Notes under the pieces: model-generated
What the model saw: the letters and a program-made list of their open reading frames with translations, nothing else
Told to the model about the DNA's origin: nothing
The model's database searches: none
Made by a program: the position numbers and the translations under genes
Shown here: in pieces, positions 9,674 to 37,887 of the stretch
Layout: each line of letters begins with the position of its first letter
Numbering within the stretch: position 1 is the stretch's first letter
Assembly (NCBI GenBank): GCA_001189095.1
Contig: LFCK01000004.1
Span: 5,674 to 69,673, forward strand
Origin: Parcubacteria bacterium C7867-001
GTDB taxonomy: Bacteria > Patescibacteriota > Minisyncoccia > Phycocordibacterales > Phycocordibacteraceae
DNA: 64,000 nucleotides
Direction: 5' to 3'

Positions 9674-10231
9674 TTATGTATGCTTCGAGGCGTCGTTAAG
9701 AAGATCGGCAAACTGCTTCTGCACCTTCTGGAGTTTCGGCGCGATGATCACTTGGCAGTATCCCTGATTCGCGTTGTTTGCGAAGTAGTCCTTATGGTAG
9801 TCCTCTGCGGTGTAGTAGTTGGTGAGCGGTTCGACAGTGGTTACGATAGGGTCGCCGCCTGCTGCTGAAACTTGGAGCTCGGCGATGAATTCGTCGGCGT
9901 CGTGTTTCTGCTCATCGGTCGTATAGAAAATTACCGAGCGATATTGAGTCCCGACGTCATTGCCTTGTTGATTGAGTTGCGTCGCGTCATGGCTCCCAAA
10001 GAAAACGGTCATAAGATCGCGGAAACGGATCTGAGAAGGATCGTATTCAACACGTGCGACTTCGACGTAGTCCGTGTTTCCATTCGCGACCTCAAGATAG
10101 GTCGGGTTCGGCTTTTCTCCACCCGCATAGCCCGGCTCAACCGCCCTCACGCCGCGCAGCATCTTGAACACTGCTTCCGTGCACCAGAAGCAACCCCCGC
10201 CAAATACTGCGATCTCAGTCTTATTTTCCAT
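9674..10231 (-). CDS. msrA: Peptide methionine sulfoxide reductase A
   Basis: GGGCFWCTE active-site motif near the N-terminus. Confidence 0.9.
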   Translation of the reverse strand: MENKTEIAVFGGGCFWCTEAVFKMLRGVRAVEPGYAGGEKPNPTYLEVANGNTDYVEVARVEYDPSQIRFRDLMTVFFGSHDATQLNQQGNDVGTQYRSVIFYTTDEQKHDADEFIAELQVSAAGGDPIVTTVEPLTNYYTAEDYHKDYFANNANQGYCQVIIAPKLQKVQKQFADLLNDASKHT

Positions 10232-10640
10232 CCTCTTCAAATCCTAAGCATACGGAATTGATGCAGTAATGCTTCTGGTCCTTTCCTTCTATGTGTTCGT
10301 CAAAGACGTGGCCTAAGTGGCTGCCGCAGTGCTTACAGTAGACTTCCGTGCGGTGCATGCCGAGTGAATCGTCGGGGCGCAAGCCAATGTTTTCAGCGAC
10401 CGCTGGGTCGGAGAAGGAGGGCCAACCCCGCAACCCCGCACCGCTTTTTTCGGAGTCGAGTTTATCCTTCGAGTTGAAAAGGGGATTGCCACATACTTTG
10501 CAGGTATACATGCCGGAAGCGGTGTGGTTGAGGAATTCACCGGAATATGGTGCTTCTGTCCCGCCCTCCCGTAGGACTTTATACTCCTCAGGAGTCAACT
10601 CCTGTTTGAGTTGCTCATCGCTTTTTTTCATCGGTTCCAT
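10221..10640 (-). CDS. msrB: Peptide methionine sulfoxide reductase B
   Basis: SelR fold: two CxxC zinc pairs, HLGHVF and RYCINS catalytic Cys; overlaps the msrA start by 11 nt. Confidence 0.85.
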   Translation of the reverse strand: MEPMKKSDEQLKQELTPEEYKVLREGGTEAPYSGEFLNHTASGMYTCKVCGNPLFNSKDKLDSEKSGAGLRGWPSFSDPAVAENIGLRPDDSLGMHRTEVYCKHCGSHLGHVFDEHIEGKDQKHYCINSVCLGFEEDGK

Positions 10641-10699
10641 ATAGAGGAAGTATACCCCGTCGTTGATTTCATTGGTTGGGAAGGGTAGTATGGGTTTCC

Positions 10700-11149
10700 A
10701 TGAAGAAAGGGGTTCTCATTGGGCTTTTCATTTTCCTTTGTTTGTTCGGGGTTGCCGACTCGTGGTACATCTACGCAAACGAAGAGAACCAGACCGCGCT
10801 CACCTGCGATATTACGGGGCTTGATGGCTGCAATGCTGTTGCACAGAGTCAGTATTCGCAGGTCTTGGGTATCCCACTCGCACTCTACGGTGTTCTATTC
10901 TATGGCCTCCTCTTTACGCTGGTCGCTTCTACCGCGTTTACGCACAAGCGCCTCGCGTATCGTTCGCTCTACTGGCTTACCGCGGGCGGGGCCGTAGCGT
11001 CCTTCGTGTTCATTCTCATACAGCTGCTCATCATCAAAGCCATCTGCATTTACTGCTTTGCCTCGGCGGGGGCCTCCTTCCTCCTTCTCGGCATCGCGTT
11101 TGTTCTCTATCGCCGGTACGCTCCTCCACCGCTTGCTGTGGTAGGATAG
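10700..11149 (+). CDS. Vitamin K epoxide reductase (VKOR)-family thiol oxidoreductase
   Basis: 4 TM helices, a loop Cys pair (CDITGLDGC) and a CIYC active-site motif in the last helix. Confidence 0.65.
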   Translation: MKKGVLIGLFIFLCLFGVADSWYIYANEENQTALTCDITGLDGCNAVAQSQYSQVLGIPLALYGVLFYGLLFTLVASTAFTHKRLAYRSLYWLTAGGAVASFVFILIQLLIIKAICIYCFASAGASFLLLGIAFVLYRRYAPPPLAVVG

Positions 11150-11155
11150 TTTCGT

Positions 11156-12304
11156 ATGAAGCTGCGGATTTTCCTCATCGCGGCCCTCGTCTTCCTCCTT
11201 CCGGATGTTTCTTTTGCTGCTACCTTCCTCGGTAAGCAGACCGTACTTTTTGCCGACGCCTCTTCCACGAACGTGTATCTCACGGGTGGCGACGTCCGAA
11301 TTGCGACCGCGACGCCTGCTGATCTTTCGATTGCGGGTGGTACGTTGTCCATCTCGGCACCCGTTGGGGGCGACGCGCTTCTTTTCGGAGGTTCGATAGA
11401 TGTTCAGCGTCCAGTGAAAGGGGACGTACGCGCCGTGGGCGGCAGTGTGGTTATCGAAGATACGGTTGGCGGGGATGTTGTTGCGCTTGGTGGGGCCATA
11501 ACCGTTTCCGGACATCCAAAAGACGCATTTCTCGCTGGTGGAACGGTAGCGCTTACTAATGGCGCGTCGGGTCCCGTGACTATTTATGGCGCTGGCGTCC
11601 TTCTCGCAGGAACATTCGAGGATGACGTGCGTGTCACGGCAAGCGATCATATTACGCTTGCCGAAGGAACAATTATTAAAGGTTCGCTCGTGTATGACGC
11701 GCCGCAGCAGGCTGAAATTCCTGCGTCCGCGACTATCGGCAGCGTTGAATACACCGGTTCATCATCCTTTCTTCCAACGAACGCAGAAGCGAAGACTTTT
11801 GCGGTCGCCGGCGCGGGCGTCTTCCTTGTCGTAAGTGTTCTTTCGGCGATGCTTCTCTCGGGACTTGTTGCTGGACTCTTCCCAGACTTCACACAAACAG
11901 TTGCTCAGTTCGCGTTGCGCGGCTCGCTGCGCCGGTTCGTGCTTACGGCGCTCCTCGGATTTGCTGCTTTTGTCGCAACTCCCGTCTTTATTCTTCTGCT
12001 CCTCGCCTCGTTTGTTGGCATGGGTGTGGCGATGCTTGCCGGCGTGTTGTACCTCCTCCTCCTCACCCTTTCGTATGTATATGCAGCCGTTCTTGCGGGT
12101 AGCGCGCTTGCGCGTTCAGTATGGAAACGGGAGACCGTGTTCTGGCGTGACGTCGTGCTCGGCATGCTCGTCCTGCAGCTCATCGGGCGGGTCCCCGGCA
12201 TAGGACCGCTTATCGCGCTCGTACTTTCTGCAGCTGCTGCGGGCACACTCCTTACGCTCGCGTTCCGCTTCGCCTTCAAGCGTGAAGGTCCAGAGGAGTT
12301 ATAA
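11156..12304 (+). CDS. Signal-peptide protein with beta-helical GGDV-type repeats (bactofilin/DUF4097-like) and a C-terminal multi-TM anchor
   Basis: Repeats VGGDALLFGGSIDV / VGGSVVIEDTVGGDVVALGGAITV, then about 4 C-terminal TM helices. Confidence 0.45.
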   Translation: MKLRIFLIAALVFLLPDVSFAATFLGKQTVLFADASSTNVYLTGGDVRIATATPADLSIAGGTLSISAPVGGDALLFGGSIDVQRPVKGDVRAVGGSVVIEDTVGGDVVALGGAITVSGHPKDAFLAGGTVALTNGASGPVTIYGAGVLLAGTFEDDVRVTASDHITLAEGTIIKGSLVYDAPQQAEIPASATIGSVEYTGSSSFLPTNAEAKTFAVAGAGVFLVVSVLSAMLLSGLVAGLFPDFTQTVAQFALRGSLRRFVLTALLGFAAFVATPVFILLLLASFVGMGVAMLAGVLYLLLLTLSYVYAAVLAGSALARSVWKRETVFWRDVVLGMLVLQLIGRVPGIGPLIALVLSAAAAGTLLTLAFRFAFKREGPEEL

Positions 12305-12367
12305 ACCTCGTGTTCGTTGACGCGTGTGCTTCTGTCCCTAAGAGTAAGGGCAGAAGGGAGACGTGAC

Positions 12368-12739
12368 ATGAAGAAAAAGAATGCGCTCGCCATTCCTAAA
12401 TCAGTGAAGCTTCTCGATTTGTCGTACTACCTCGCGCGGGTGTATCGCGAACATGAGTCATGCGAAGATCCGATATTCATCGGTGAGCTCGGCATGCTTC
12501 TGTTCAGCAAGTTTCTCGGTCAGCACCCACCGTTCGACGGAACCTACCGCTCGCAAGCGTATGCGTTTCTCGAATATGTTGATGCCGGCATTCATGAGTG
12601 GCTTGAGAAGCACGACTTGTATCCGATGTATCACGCGCTCGGCGACGCTCGCATCTACGCTGATATGCTGCGTAGCCTCGCGTATCAAATGCAGCTCGCC
12701 GCGCTTCCTGAGCAAAGGAAAACTGCGTTCGTTGCATAA
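12368..12739 (+). CDS. Hypothetical protein
   Basis: ORF with GGAGA RBS; followed by the hairpin terminator at 12742-12768. Confidence 0.4.
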   Translation: MKKKNALAIPKSVKLLDLSYYLARVYREHESCEDPIFIGELGMLLFSKFLGQHPPFDGTYRSQAYAFLEYVDAGIHEWLEKHDLYPMYHALGDARIYADMLRSLAYQMQLAALPEQRKTAFVA

Positions 12740-12786
12740 AAGACCGCCTCGCCTCTGGCGAGGCGGTTATATGCTATCGTTCCCGC

Positions 12787-13458
12787 ATGAAATCGATGTC
12801 GACACCTGCAGAACGAAAGACTCGAGCAAAGAAGATGCTCGCGTACCTTAAGAAGGCGTATCCTGTTCCTAAAACCGAACTCAACTACACAACACCGATG
12901 CAAATGCTCGCATCCGTCATGCTCTCAGCGCAAACGACCGATAAGCAGGTGAACAAAGTAACGGCAACCCTTTGGAAGAAATATAAAACAGTGAAGGATT
13001 TTGCGAGCGCGAAGTACGCGACCCTCGATAAGGAAATAAGCTCAGTCTCGTTCCATCGCAATAAGGCAAAAGCCATCATCGCAAGCGCGCAAAAGATCAT
13101 CGATGATTTCGGTGGCAAGGTTCCGAAGACCGAGCCCGAGCTCGTGACGCTTCCCGGTGTCGCCTACAAAACTGCACATGTCGTTCTTGGGGAGCTCTAC
13201 AACATCTGGGAAGGTATTCCGACCGACACGCACGTAAAGCGCTTTGCGCTCAGGTTCGATCTGACAAAGCATACGGATCTTAAAAAAATCTCGAAGGATC
13301 TCGAAGCCCTCATACCAAAAAAGGATTGGCGGTACGTCAATAATGGTCTGGTTCTCTACGGTCGTTATGTGTGTCCGGCTCGGCCTCACGACTGCGCTAT
13401 GCACCCGCTCACCAAGATCTGGCCAGAGGCCCAAAAGCGCTGGCCTCGCGCATCCTAA
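12787..13458 (+). CDS. nth: Endonuclease III-like HhH-GPD DNA glycosylase
   Basis: HhH motif LPGVAYKTAHVVL and a C-terminal Cys cluster (CPARPHDC...). Confidence 0.7.
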   Translation: MKSMSTPAERKTRAKKMLAYLKKAYPVPKTELNYTTPMQMLASVMLSAQTTDKQVNKVTATLWKKYKTVKDFASAKYATLDKEISSVSFHRNKAKAIIASAQKIIDDFGGKVPKTEPELVTLPGVAYKTAHVVLGELYNIWEGIPTDTHVKRFALRFDLTKHTDLKKISKDLEALIPKKDWRYVNNGLVLYGRYVCPARPHDCAMHPLTKIWPEAQKRWPRAS

Positions 13459-13462
13459 TTCG

Positions 13463-13490
13463 TTGACCCAAGGTGCTCGAGGTATACAAT
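13463..13490 (+). promoter_or_regulatory. Near-consensus sigma70 promoter (TTGACC - 16 nt - TACAAT)
   Basis: TTGACC at 13463-13468 and TACAAT at 13485-13490. Confidence 0.5.
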
Positions 13491-13496
13491 GTCCCT

Positions 13497-13710
13497 CAGA
13501 CTCTGGCTACGTGGTATCCCGGCATTCCGGAGTGAGAAGGTCGGAGCGTGAAGGGAATCGGGAGCTCTTGCGAGCTCACGGCAGACCGCAGGCGGTTCAG
13601 CCACCATTGCCCCCGCCGACCAATGCTAGCAATATGTTGGGCAGTATCACTCGCGCCAGAGTAGCGCCCCTCGTTTGGTTTCCGGCCGGAACCTGCGAGG
13701 GGCGTTTTGC
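13497..13710 (+). ncRNA. Candidate ~210-nt small RNA (6S-like or SRP-like) with its own promoter and terminator
   Basis: No ORF longer than 16 aa; 5'/3' long-range pairing (ctctggc...gccagag); internal hairpin gagctc-ttgc-gagctc; terminator cgcccctcg...cgaggggcg + T-run. Confidence 0.35.
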
Positions 13711-13727
13711 TTTGCTAGGATAGACCG

Positions 13728-14537
13728 ATGACGATAGCGGCGTTCAGAAAAAGGGTACTCGATTTTCATGCGGCGCAGGGGAGGCACGCGCTTCCATGGC
13801 GCGAGAGCAACGATCCGTACCGCGTACTAGTCTCCGAGATCATGCTGCAGCAGACGCAGGTGGAACGCGTCATTCCGTTTTATAAGGCGTGGATAAAAAA
13901 GTTTCCAATCGTTCGCTCGCTCGCAAAAGCCCCGCTCGCGGATGTTCTCAAACTCTGGCAAGGACTTGGCTACAATCGTCGCGCTCGGCTTCTTCTCGAA
14001 ACCGCAAAAGCGGTGGTTCGTGAAAACAAGGGAGTTTTTCCAAAGACACCGGAAGAGCTCGAAAAACTTCCCGGCATTGGCCCCTATACCGCCCGAGCTG
14101 TTGCGGCTTTTTCATATAATCAGGACGTGGTGTTCATCGAGACAAATATCCGTACGGCGGTGACACATCACTTTTTCCCGCATAAGAAGAAAGTAGAGGA
14201 TAAAGAACTGATCGCGATTCTTGCGAAAGCGCTTCCGAAAGGAAAAAGCAGAGAATGGTACTCAGCGCTCATGGATTACGGTTCGTATCTGAAGCGAAGC
14301 GGCGTTCGTATTAATGCAAAAGCAAAGGGGTACACGAAGCAGCCGAAGTTTGAAGGCTCTCCGCGCCAAGCGCGTGGCGCTATTCTCAAAGCTCTCGTGA
14401 AGGGTCCGCAAGACGAGGCGTTTCTTATTGAACTTCTTGGTTCATCTCGCCGTGTGCAGATGTGCGCTCAGCTAGCAGTACTCACGAAAGAGGGAATGAT
14501 AGAGCTCTCGCGAGGCAAATTCAGGCTTCCCAAATGA
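13728..14537 (+). CDS. HhH-GPD glycosylase, MutY-like N-terminal catalytic domain, with no FeS Cys cluster and no NUDIX C-terminal domain visible
   Basis: LPWRESNDPYRVLVSEIMLQQTQV...LPGIGPYTARAV motifs. Confidence 0.7.
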   Translation: MTIAAFRKRVLDFHAAQGRHALPWRESNDPYRVLVSEIMLQQTQVERVIPFYKAWIKKFPIVRSLAKAPLADVLKLWQGLGYNRRARLLLETAKAVVRENKGVFPKTPEELEKLPGIGPYTARAVAAFSYNQDVVFIETNIRTAVTHHFFPHKKKVEDKELIAILAKALPKGKSREWYSALMDYGSYLKRSGVRINAKAKGYTKQPKFEGSPRQARGAILKALVKGPQDEAFLIELLGSSRRVQMCAQLAVLTKEGMIELSRGKFRLPK

Positions 14538-14565
14538 AAACGCGGCGCCAGAGGCGCCGCGTTTT
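14537..14565. terminator. Bidirectional intrinsic terminator between convergent genes
   Basis: aaaacgcggcgcc-agag-gcgccgcgtttt. Confidence 0.65.
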
Positions 14566-14580
14566 CATTTGCATGTAGTA

Positions 14581-16488
14581 CTAGACCCCGATCAGCACTG
14601 GAATGACCATCGGTGCTTTATTCGTTCGCGAGAAGAGGTAGCCCGCCATGGTGTCGGTGAGCTGGTTCTTCACATAGTCGAGGTCGACGGGGTTCATACC
14701 GCGAGTAGAATCCTCGACGGTCTTCTTGATGAGAAGGCGACCTTGATTGAGGAGATCCTGAGACTCACGCAGATACACGAAGCCGCGGGAAATAATGTCC
14801 GGTGACTTGCGGAGCTTGCCGGTCTTCAGGTTAATCGTGGCGATGATGACGAACATTCCGTCTTTCGCGAGCATCTGGCGATCGCGAATGACCACTTCCT
14901 GCATATCCCCGATAGCGAAGCCGTCGACAATAAGCGGAGAGTTCGGAACCTTTTCCTTGTGGATGGTAAGCGTCTCGCCGTCGATGATGTCGGCGACCGT
15001 GCCGTTCTCCGCGAGGATGATGTTTTCCTTCGGGAAGCCGGACTGCTCGACCGCCTTTGCGTGGCAGAAGGTCATCGAGTAGTAGCCGTAGGCTGGAAGG
15101 AAGAACTTCGCACCCACTTTCTTGTTTATCCAGACGAGCTCTCCTGTGTGGCCGTGGCCGCCCGAGTGAACATCGCTTGAGCGATAGTGAATGAGGGATA
15201 CTTTGTTGTGATAGAGATTGTCCTTGAGTTTCTGGACGGAGATCTCGTTGCCCGGAATGACGGATGACGAGAGGACGACCGTATCGCGCTCGGTAAGCGT
15301 GATGTTCTTGTGCTGCTTGGTTGCGATGCGCATGAGCGCAGCAAACTCTTCACCCTGCGCGCCAGTAGCGAGCACAACAATCTTGTCAGGTGGGTAATCG
15401 CCAATTTCCTGAGCAGGGATGATGGTGTCCTTAGCGAGCTTCACGAGCCCGAGCTTCTGCGCGATTTCAAGGTTTGTCTTTATCGAGCGTCCCTCGAGCA
15501 CGAGCTTCTTTCCGTATTTCTCGGAAATCTCGATGATGCTCACCATGCGTTCGAACTGGGACGCGAAGGTGCCGATGATGAGGCGGCCCGAAACGGTCTT
15601 GATGATGCCTTCGAGCGTCTCATTCACTTTCTTGTCGGGAATGGAGAATCCGTCCACTTCCGCACGCGTTGAATCGCCGATGAAGAGCAGGTTCTTCTGT
15701 TCGCCTATTTTCGACCAGCGCTTTTCTTCTTCGGGCACCGGAATGCCATCCACGTGCTCGAGCTTAAGGTCGCCGGTGATCACGATGTTGCCATAGGGCG
15801 TATCAATGAGAATGCCCATCGAGTCCGGAATCGAGTGCGTAACGGGGAAGAAGGTGCACTTGGTCGAACCAATGGTGTGTGTCTGCCAATCGTCGACGAT
15901 GACGAGATTCGCTGCTGGCATCTCAGGATATTCTTCCTGACGTTTCTGGATCATGGTCGCCGAAAGCTGCTTCGTGTAGATCGGCGGATTGCCGAAACGA
16001 TTCATGAGGAATGGGATACCGCCGATGTGGTCGAGGTGGCCGTGCGTGATGAATACGGCACGGACACGATCCGCGTTCTTCTCGAGGTATTTCGTATTCG
16101 GAAGGATGTAGTCGACGCCCGGAGAAGAATCTTCCGAGGTGAACTGGAAGCCGACGTCGGACACAAAGATGTCGTTGCCGACTTCAAACGCAAGCATGTT
16201 GCGGCCGACTTCTTCGACGCCGCCTAAAGGCACGACGCGAACGACGTTTGATTCGACTGGTGCAGGAATATAGTCTGCACCGCGTTTTACTGCGGGCGAG
16301 GGACCCATGTCGCGACGCATCGGGCCGCGCATCGAACGATCGCGTCCTCCGCGACCGCGACCTCCGCGCGCAGGTGGGCGTCCGCCGGCGCGATTGCCGC
16401 GGAAGCCACCTCCTCGGCGAGGGCCGTCTTTTTGTGGAGCGCCGTGCCCTCGGTTGTCAGGGGCGGGCGCTGGTGCTGGTGCTGTCAT
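14581..16488 (-). CDS. rnj: Ribonuclease J (metallo-beta-lactamase / beta-CASP) with an Arg/Gly-rich N-terminal extension
   Basis: HGHLDHIGG motif; about 60-aa N-terminal RGG/RGR-rich tail. Confidence 0.85.
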   Translation of the reverse strand: MTAPAPAPAPDNRGHGAPQKDGPRRGGGFRGNRAGGRPPARGGRGRGGRDRSMRGPMRRDMGPSPAVKRGADYIPAPVESNVVRVVPLGGVEEVGRNMLAFEVGNDIFVSDVGFQFTSEDSSPGVDYILPNTKYLEKNADRVRAVFITHGHLDHIGGIPFLMNRFGNPPIYTKQLSATMIQKRQEEYPEMPAANLVIVDDWQTHTIGSTKCTFFPVTHSIPDSMGILIDTPYGNIVITGDLKLEHVDGIPVPEEEKRWSKIGEQKNLLFIGDSTRAEVDGFSIPDKKVNETLEGIIKTVSGRLIIGTFASQFERMVSIIEISEKYGKKLVLEGRSIKTNLEIAQKLGLVKLAKDTIIPAQEIGDYPPDKIVVLATGAQGEEFAALMRIATKQHKNITLTERDTVVLSSSVIPGNEISVQKLKDNLYHNKVSLIHYRSSDVHSGGHGHTGELVWINKKVGAKFFLPAYGYYSMTFCHAKAVEQSGFPKENIILAENGTVADIIDGETLTIHKEKVPNSPLIVDGFAIGDMQEVVIRDRQMLAKDGMFVIIATINLKTGKLRKSPDIISRGFVYLRESQDLLNQGRLLIKKTVEDSTRGMNPVDLDYVKNQLTDTMAGYLFSRTNKAPMVIPVLIGV

Positions 16489-25294: not shown

Positions 25295-25645
25295 CGGACC
25301 GATTCAGACGATCGCTCTCAGGATAGGAATGTCCCGAAGGGAGGAAAGTCCGAGCACAGGCATTCGCAAGGATGCAGCAGGGTAGCGGGTAACGCCCGTC
25401 CGCGGAAACGCGCGAGGTGCGAGCAGTGACGTCAAACGCGAAAGCGCGCGACAACCTTCGGGTTGAAGTCCATCGAAAGGTGGAAGTGAAACGGCTAAAT
25501 CCTTACTTCTGTGCAAGGCCGTATCGATAATCTTCGGATATGTCGAGGCGCCGCTTGAGGTGTACGGTAACGTACATCCCAGATAGATGATCGTCCGTGT
25601 AGCAATACGCGACAGAACTCGGCTTATCGAATCGGTATCCACTTC
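25295..25645 (+). ncRNA. rnpB: RNase P RNA (bacterial type A)
   Basis: P4 GGGAGGAAAGTCCGAGCACAG, GGTAACGCCCG, and the 3' element AGATAGATGATCG...ACAGAACTCGGCTTATCG; TATAAT -10 at 25284-25289; terminator at 25652-25673. Confidence 0.9.
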
Positions 25646-37274: not shown

Positions 37275-37303
37275 TTGACTAATAGACCACAAAATGTTAC
37301 AAT
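37275..37303 (+). promoter_or_regulatory. Consensus sigma70 promoter (TTGACT - 17 nt - TACAAT) overlapped by a 7-bp inverted repeat gtctatt/aatagac
   Basis: Seen upstream of the 37351 gene. Confidence 0.5.
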
Positions 37304-37350: not shown

Positions 37351-37887
37351 ATGACTTCATCGCGAACGCGTGATGTGTTACGGAAAACGTCCCGTGTAAG
37401 GGACGTCAACGACGACACGGATGAAAATGTTCCGTTCGTTCCCCGAGGCGCCGTCGTCGAGCGATTGACGATCTGGGGCGCTGAAAACGCTCCGACCTTC
37501 CTGATGACCATTCCGGAGGGCGCGCTTCTGCGCGAGACGGATCATGCTGGCGTGTACCTTGAGTGGTCCACCGCCGGCGTCCAATTCTTCCTGCGCGCGG
37601 ATAATCCGGAAGCCTTCGCAGGCAAACGGGTTCGCGTGCGCGGCGAGATCAACGAGAAGCGGTACGAGAACGGCGACATCAGCCTCTATCTCGACTTCTT
37701 CGATCCTGTCGACTTCGTCAACGACGGCACGACGCAGCCCACCCATGACGTGGTGGTGCACAATCGTGCCGATCAGATGCGCCGCGCGCCGCCGGTGTTT
37801 TCGGTTCCCATCCCAGGGATGCCGGGCGCCATCGCGGTGTATGACCATGTGGTCAGCGCCTACAAACAGAAGAGCGGGGCAGCGTAG
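37351..37887 (+). CDS. Hypothetical protein
   Basis: ORF with GGAGA RBS; terminator at 37921-37950. Confidence 0.45.
   Translation: MTSSRTRDVLRKTSRVRDVNDDTDENVPFVPRGAVVERLTIWGAENAPTFLMTIPEGALLRETDHAGVYLEWSTAGVQFFLRADNPEAFAGKRVRVRGEINEKRYENGDISLYLDFFDPVDFVNDGTTQPTHDVVVHNRADQMRRAPPVFSVPIPGMPGAIAVYDHVVSAYKQKSGAA

Follow-up and report, generated by a model that had tools for sequence, protein, structure and literature searches.

The window (the whole 64,000-nt stretch of DNA analysed here) contains a candidate RNA gene in the 269-nt gap between nth and a mutY-like gene. The two flanking genes had been taken for glycosylase genes in a preliminary description of this DNA, and Pfam assigned both products to the HhH-GPD glycosylases. 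The gap and its flanks comprise the following features, given with their coordinates in the window.

12787-13458, + strand: nth, EndoIII-like HhH-GPD glycosylase (Pfam); stop codon TAA at 13456-13458
13463-13490, + strand: sigma-70-type promoter, -35 TTGACC (13463-13468), 16-nt spacer, -10 TACAAT (13485-13490); 10 of 12 consensus positions matched
13497-13713, + strand: predicted transcript of about 216 nt, placed from the promoter and terminator positions, with its start about 7 nt past the -10 box and its end in the U-run
13500-13507, + strand: P1, 5' strand (ACTCTGGC), partner 13655-13662 (MFE fold; covariation)
13511-13525, + strand: P2, 5' strand (GTGGTATCCCGGCAT), partner 13634-13650 (MFE fold; cognate-end pairing)
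13526-13538, + strand: large internal loop, 5' strand (TTCCGGAGTGAGA), containing the stretch earlier likened to SRP RNA (MFE fold)
13539-13621, + strand: variable head, a GGTCGG/CCGACC helix (13539-13544/13616-13621) around two hairpins (MFE fold)
13622-13633, + strand: large internal loop, opposite strand (AATGCTAGCAAT) (MFE fold)
13634-13650, + strand: P2, 3' strand (ATGTTGGGCAGTATCAC) (MFE fold; cognate-end pairing)
13655-13662, + strand: P1, 3' strand (GCCAGAGT) (MFE fold; covariation)
13663-13713, + strand: intrinsic terminator, hairpin 13663-13706 (core CGCCCCTCG/CGAGGGGCG) followed by TTTTGCTTT; -30.2 kcal/mol
13714-13730, + strand: extended -10 box TGcTAGGAT of the mutY-like gene itself, outside the RNA; -10 at 13716-13721, 6 nt before the ATG (13728)
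13728-14537, + strand: mutY-like gene for a short MutY-like HhH-GPD/HhH glycosylase (Pfam)

Other annotated neighbours encode MsrA, VKOR, a DUF8173 protein, RNase J and an SBP_bac_5 protein. Functions connected with oxidative damage (MsrA, VKOR, nth and the mutY-like gene) are clustered at 9674-14537; among the homologous loci of relatives, which are designated by L numbers, MsrB (SelR) is present in the neighbourhoods of L081 and L172, and a peroxiredoxin (AhpC/Redoxin) in that of L084/L085. The mutY-like product ('A/G-specific adenine glycosylase'), 100% identical to the NCBI protein of Parcubacteria bacterium C7867-001 (CPR), is 269 aa long with HhH-GPD and HhH domains, and no Pfam match to the C-terminal NUDIX-like domain of canonical MutY was obtained in this protein (13728-14537). 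A faint match to the winged-helix family PF25213 was seen in some of its homologs. An ORF of 140 aa (12317-12739, + strand) without Pfam or PADLOC match is located between the DUF8173 gene and nth, and is followed by a GC-rich 11-bp hairpin (12743-12767), the U-run of which is on the - strand; unlike in the window, the DUF8173 gene and nth adjoin directly in relatives, e.g. in L082 and L166. RNase J (14581-16488, - strand) carries an N-terminal extension of about 80 aa that is rich in Gly, Arg and Pro, RGG-like and of low complexity, and its metallo-beta-lactamase domain begins after this extension at about residue 133. Elsewhere in the window, RNase P RNA of the bacterial type A was recognized at 25296-25642 (+ strand) with 121 bits against a gathering score of 100, indicating a divergent CPR version.

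The predicted promoter begins 5 nt past the stop codon of nth and is the best promoter-like site within 12500-15000. Matches to the pattern TTGACN-16/17-TAnnnT occurred at a background of 3.7e-5 per nt in 1.9 Mb of fetched sequence and three times in the 64-kb window. Another of these three full-consensus promoters is TTGACT-17-TACAAT at 37275-37302. The hairpin of the terminator has TTTTGCTTTG directly on its 3' side, and is overlooked by a simple terminator scan because its stem is interrupted. A terminator belonging to nth itself was not present.

In the MFE fold of 13497-13712, the ends of the RNA are joined by P1 and P2, the latter helix containing four G-U wobbles and a 2-nt bulge. This closing helix starts a few nt from the predicted transcript start and stops just ahead of the terminator. 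Part of the large internal loop is closed by a weak 4-bp helix in the MFE structure, and a comparable loop was found in L169 only. The two hairpins of the head are GAGCTC-TTGC-GAGCTC (13562-13577) and 13580-13602. Four elements of the preliminary description were recovered in this way: the TTGACC-16-TACAAT promoter, the closing helix of 5' and 3' segments with an internal loop, the perfect internal GAGCTC-TTGC-GAGCTC hairpin, and the strong terminator (hairpin plus U-run) ahead of the mutY-like start. The fold that it had suggested computing gave a z-score of -3.27 for 13497-13712, owed mostly to the terminator; the body without terminator reached z = -1.15. The closing helix was confirmed, whereas the body of the window RNA alone lacks significant structure and the window copy is therefore unconvincing when taken alone.

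The earlier statement that no ORF longer than 16 aa follows the promoter was incorrect, as a GTG-initiated ORF of 38 aa is present at 13548-13664 and one reading frame is open over 13343-13723. No conserved ORF was detected among the relatives, and tblastx matches were confined to the promoter and the terminator and occurred in all frames. The conclusion that the segment is non-coding stands because none of the ORFs is conserved in relatives. A small protein gene was rejected on the same ground; a remnant of HAD, PspC or another neighbouring gene was also rejected, as no similarity was found.

Many relatives of the mutY-like protein at 60-75% identity were found in a protein database, and the contigs of twelve of them were examined. 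Ten relatives, with flanking proteins 69-75% identical to those of the window, were used for comparison. Gene order is conserved as DUF8173 - nth - [X] - mutY-like - RNase J, and at ten distinct loci a non-coding gap of 220-390 nt lies directly after nth. Since the gap precedes a HAD hydrolase gene and not mutY in most relatives, the element goes with the 3' end of nth rather than with the 5' end of mutY. It is missing after nth at L083, L084/L085 and L002, and is therefore dispensable or able to move.

A TTGACN-16/17-TAnnnT promoter is located 0-13 nt past the nth stop codon in the window and in 9 of the 10 relatives, and is the sole match to this pattern in each of the 9 related loci bearing it; L169 has an extended -10 only at the promoter position. 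All nine single-copy homologs (9/9) end in a hairpin of between -11 and -33 kcal/mol with a U-run behind it. In the tenth relative, L176, a weaker hairpin with a U-run was found, and the last hairpin is without a U-run. At the same locus (L176, 2005-2054), the first part of the RNA (GGTTCTTGG) has two possible pairing partners, CCAAGAACC on the upstream side of the promoter and AGAGAACC on its downstream side, and one of these alternative helices encloses the promoter itself. At L170 (1640-1700), the HAD hydrolase gene was called with a start that falls within the terminator hairpin of the sRNA (AAGCGCCTTATGGGCGCTTTT); the gene more likely starts about 30 nt further on, at an ATG preceded by a TACCAT box.

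Pairing of the ends was assessed by a cognate-end test, in which the first 40 nt of each RNA were paired with the last 40 nt of every RNA in a set of nine. The cognate duplex ranked first of nine in 7 of the 9 RNAs, the exceptions being the two-module RNAs of L167 and L174, and the mean energy was -30.8 kcal/mol for cognate versus -18.9 kcal/mol (sd 4.9) for non-cognate duplexes. The closing helix of the window (-31.5 kcal/mol) exceeds the non-cognate 5'/3' combinations. Covariation in P1 was counted in the five RNAs with recognisably homologous P1 strands (alignment A4): 97.5% of the cells were paired, a percentage inflated because the register was set by hand using pairing, and both sides were changed in 6 of 8 pairs. 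None of 500 shuffles scored as high, and slid registers were 17-50% paired. Further compensatory changes were seen in pairwise alignments.

Helix energies favoured the + strand. The asymmetry is modest when averaged over the RNAs (-30.8 kcal/mol on the + strand versus -28.6 kcal/mol on the - strand) and clearest for the window and L169, where the helices are 9-10 kcal/mol weaker on the other strand; the P1+P2 duplex of the window has -31.5 kcal/mol on the + strand versus -22.8 kcal/mol on the - strand. The small average difference, inverted repeats of 8-21 bp around a variable interior, and ORFs of 29-70 aa that can be drawn through the segment would agree with a DNA-level inverted repeat, a decayed mobile element or a small protein gene that yields no functional RNA. 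Such an origin is considered highly improbable, however, given the conserved orientation of promoter and terminator, the pronounced strand difference of the G-U-rich helices in the window and L169, and the failure to find either a conserved ORF or similarity to neighbouring genes. In addition, a repeat search identified the element as single-copy within the 64-kb window, and no match was found in plasmid and phage collections, so that a mobile element was rejected.

The relation of the element to the downstream gene was evaluated from start-site signals in the window. Among 51 genes (window ORFs of at least 120 aa), Shine-Dalgarno-like motifs precede 6, and a TAnnnT box is located 5-9 nt before the start of 14, versus a background of 4.4% (about six-fold enrichment; e.g. 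11138-11155 and 13714-13727). The enrichment of the box and the rarity of Shine-Dalgarno motifs suggest that this Parcubacteria genome commonly uses extended -10 promoters that give rise to leaderless mRNAs. In the terminator-bearing homologs, the downstream gene has TAGGAT, TACGAT or TACCAT 6-8 nt before its ATG. L176 is the exception, with a TAGGAG box and a HAD gene preceded by an AGGAG Shine-Dalgarno sequence; its promoter may drive a leadered HAD mRNA, which makes this locus a possible exception to the verdict reached below.

These observations bear on the proposal that the segment acts in cis, as an internal promoter for the downstream genes and as their 5' leader or attenuator, combined with the 3' UTR and terminator of nth. 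Transcripts of nth must enter the segment, as nth lacks a terminator of its own; the arrangement at L176 resembles a leadered mRNA, and a spacer-like role would more readily explain why the sequence is not conserved. Evidence to the contrary comes from the strong canonical terminators in 9/9 other homologs and the downstream genes' own TAnnAT box 6-8 nt before the ATG; a conserved aptamer or anti-terminator was not detectable, and a plain terminator or spacer needs no covarying long-range helix joining the exact ends. A role in cis is therefore regarded as rather unlikely. The preliminary description had allowed for a long 5' leader of the mutY-like gene as a fallback. This also appears unlikely, because the downstream gene varies, HAD following in most relatives, and because the mutY-like gene has its own leaderless-type box TGcTAGGAT. 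A riboswitch or attenuation leader was discarded as well, since no conserved core and no Rfam cis-regulatory match were found and the downstream gene varies. The strong terminators and the downstream genes' own boxes mark the element as a separate transcription unit.

Within this unit, layout and interior differ in their conservation. The expectation that the intergenic region would be conserved in relatives held for the layout of promoter, terminator and stalk, but not for the interior sequence. Bodies could not be aligned even where the flanking proteins are 80-86% identical, and the variable head of the window (13539-13621) was unalignable with any homolog; the exception is the pair L167 and L174, with 69% identity over about 190 nt. 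When nhmmer and blastn were applied to 165 distant loci and the close loci, alignments were obtained only at the promoter and at the terminator with the downstream leader (L167/L174 excepted). Scans of species-representative genomes and JGI metagenomes with the mutY-like protein gave, among the matches listed, only relatives of at most 55% identity, and these distant relatives were without nucleotide similarity to the element; the scans are uninformative for the RNA because the generic peptide EIMLQQTQ dominated the matches listed. No shared k-mers above shuffle expectation were found in the bodies, motifs picked by eye (GGGGRGC, CUGAC, CAUAUG and UUGC loops) did not exceed this expectation either, and a sequence-based multiple alignment of nine bodies revealed no common core.

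The interiors of the homologs are nevertheless better folded than shuffled sequences (z between -1.7 and -4.8). RNA length ranges from about 110 to 340 nt across the homologs and branching also varies widely, a spread that fits weak constraint. According to MFE predictions only, most homologs contain 3-6 hairpins without a central bubble, and L081, L082, L166, L170 and L172 are multi-branched. L167 (1514-1830) and L174 (1531-1830) consist of two tandem modules, each with a long closing stem, and a single terminator.

Rapid sequence turnover is normal at this divergence for base-pairing sRNAs, and a classical sRNA of this kind, encoded at the 3' end of an mRNA, transcribed from a promoter of its own and acting on clade-specific targets, would account for the variable interior and for a promoter and terminator immediately 3' of a coding gene. 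A single perfect 14-nt complement of the sRNA (13536-13549) was located in the window at 37487-37500, but with E = 0.05 this match does not rise above chance, and the site falls within an uncharacterised ORF. It is situated about 190 nt downstream of the promoter at 37275, in a region of overlapping ORFs without Pfam match. A conserved single-stranded seed was not found, even between loci with flanking proteins 80-86% identical, and a long stalk closing the 5' and 3' ends is unusual for such sRNAs. Base pairing with clade-specific targets is accordingly judged very doubtful as the function of the element.

The features common to independent sRNA genes in general, i.e. a promoter and a terminator of their own, covarying pairs and no conserved ORF, are all predicted at this locus. 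Across the loci compared, alignments and predicted folds show a conserved putative promoter, a terminator and a covarying stalk around an interior that changes fast and appears to be well folded, and this arrangement occupies a fixed site in a family-level clade of Parcubacteria. Taken as a whole, these data are best explained by a real, clade-restricted, independently transcribed structured sRNA outside the catalogued families, for which we estimate a probability of about 0.55. In kind, the gene is an ordinary bacterial sRNA candidate with promoter, terminator and stalk, and with a narrow distribution. Because CPR genomes are tiny and dense and the promoter is among the few full-consensus ones, a retained non-coding unit of 220-390 nt is probably functional.

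As an independent sRNA, the element would be a stand-alone RNA gene of about 216 nt, with a promoter abutting the nth stop codon, an intrinsic terminator ending the unit, and the P1/P2 stalk joining the ends of the RNA. The transcript would be made at a high level, and read-through from nth would probably also yield the RNA as a 3' extension of the nth mRNA. The terminal stalk together with the terminator hairpin would confer resistance to exonucleases. We would guess that the RNA acts via its shape, e.g. by protein binding or titration. Such a mode appears most likely because only the stalk and the foldedness are kept in relatives, whereas a single-stranded motif, an aptamer-like core and a fixed branching pattern are absent; by the same guess, a base-pairing seed or a ligand pocket is less likely.

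If expressed, the RNA would provide a handle on RNA-based regulation in Parcubacteria, and would illustrate how expression signals and a terminal stalk can persist in a molecule of which all other parts are exchanged. Its present practical value is that of a computational candidate for Rfam-style curation and RNA-seq checks. A literature search retrieved no report of an sRNA or 6S RNA for CPR, Patescibacteria or Parcubacteria.

The element was compared with known RNA families and named systems. The preliminary description had proposed a structured RNA of some 200 nt that has a dedicated promoter and terminator and resembles 6S or SRP RNA in layout; the first part is strengthened by the recurrence of the arrangement with a covarying helix in ten relatives, and the identity with 6S or SRP RNA was not upheld. 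At gathering thresholds, Rfam 15 gave no match to 6S, SRP or any other family near the locus in the 64-kb window. With E<=10, the only matches in 13400-13780 were one of 14 bits to the opposite strand and one to rdlD (16.9 bits), the latter being due to the hairpin of the terminator, and permissive thresholds gave no match in the gaps of eight homologous loci. The models for 6S (RF00013) and SRP RNA (RF00169), which had been named for a scan, matched neither the window nor the eight loci.

SRP RNA (4.5S/ffs; RF00169, RF01854) was rejected, as no covariance-model match and no GNAR-capped helix 8 hairpin were found; the likeness is limited to a stable RNA with paired ends, in which UCCGGAGUGAGAAGG loosely recalls the region of helix 8. 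The comparison of UCCGGAGUGAGAAGG with SRP domain IV was likewise abandoned, since the stretch is without Rfam support, forms no helix 8 hairpin and is absent from the homologs. A tmRNA or tRNA-like RNA was rejected because ARAGORN detected no tRNA or tmRNA in the window segment 12000-15000 or in five homologous loci. A CsrB-like sponge was dropped, as the frequent GGA motifs lie in stems and not in hairpin loops. An RNA-containing defence system was discarded, PADLOC having reported generic HhH-GPD homology only.

The position of the gene recalls sRNAs encoded at mRNA 3' ends with their own promoter, such as DapZ and MicL of enterobacteria, which are placed at the 3' end of a coding gene and share the terminator with the upstream mRNA. 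Those sRNAs, however, are short and Hfq-dependent with a conserved seed, whereas the candidate RNA has a conserved long terminal stalk and no seed.

6S RNAs (SsrS, RF00013) are typically poor in sequence conservation but retain their outline, and the candidate resembles them as a stand-alone, promoter-driven RNA of 150-200 nt with paired ends. One alternative is a 6S-type RNA that has diverged, in which the central bubble of a stable rod imitates an open promoter, so that the sigma-70 holoenzyme is bound and sequestered. The strong housekeeping-type promoter and a length of about 165 nt without the terminator agree with this idea, as does the predicted architecture of the window and L169 copies, where about 23 bp of stalk lead into a large internal loop (13-16 versus 12-15 nt) and then a terminal domain; a -10-like UAUGYU was noticed by eye on the 3' loop strand of the window, L169 and L172. 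On the other hand, RF00013 and other 6S-like models remained without a match in the window and eight loci when the threshold was relaxed to E<=10, most homologs are predicted to be multi-branched and L167 and L174 to consist of tandem stalked modules, lengths vary from about 110 to 340 nt, and the element is missing from the locus in close relatives. Because the model test failed and the architecture is not common to the other homologs, membership in the 6S family is considered quite improbable.

A broader conception is a hitherto undescribed, CPR-specific stable RNA that is constrained only in its terminal stalk and expression signals and that, as a functional analogue of 6S, Ms1 or Y RNA, could associate with one of the core enzymes, for example RNA polymerase or a ribonuclease. 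This is put forward tentatively and considered unlikely. If true, the head of such an RNA would be free, or driven, to turn over at a near-neutral rate, and a CPR-specific stable RNA would reside within an oxidative-damage repair cluster (MsrA, VKOR, nth and mutY-like).

In Y RNAs and bacterial YrlA, which associate with Ro/Rsr, the 5' end pairs with the 3' end to give a stalk that carries a variable head, and it is mainly the stalk that is conserved. The candidate RNA was not assigned to them, since it has no Rfam match and no TROVE/Rsr gene was found among the Pfam-annotated neighbours; it differs further in that ARAGORN finds no tRNA-like module. In general plan it nonetheless resembles these RNAs, with a stalk built from both ends of the molecule and a variable head above it.
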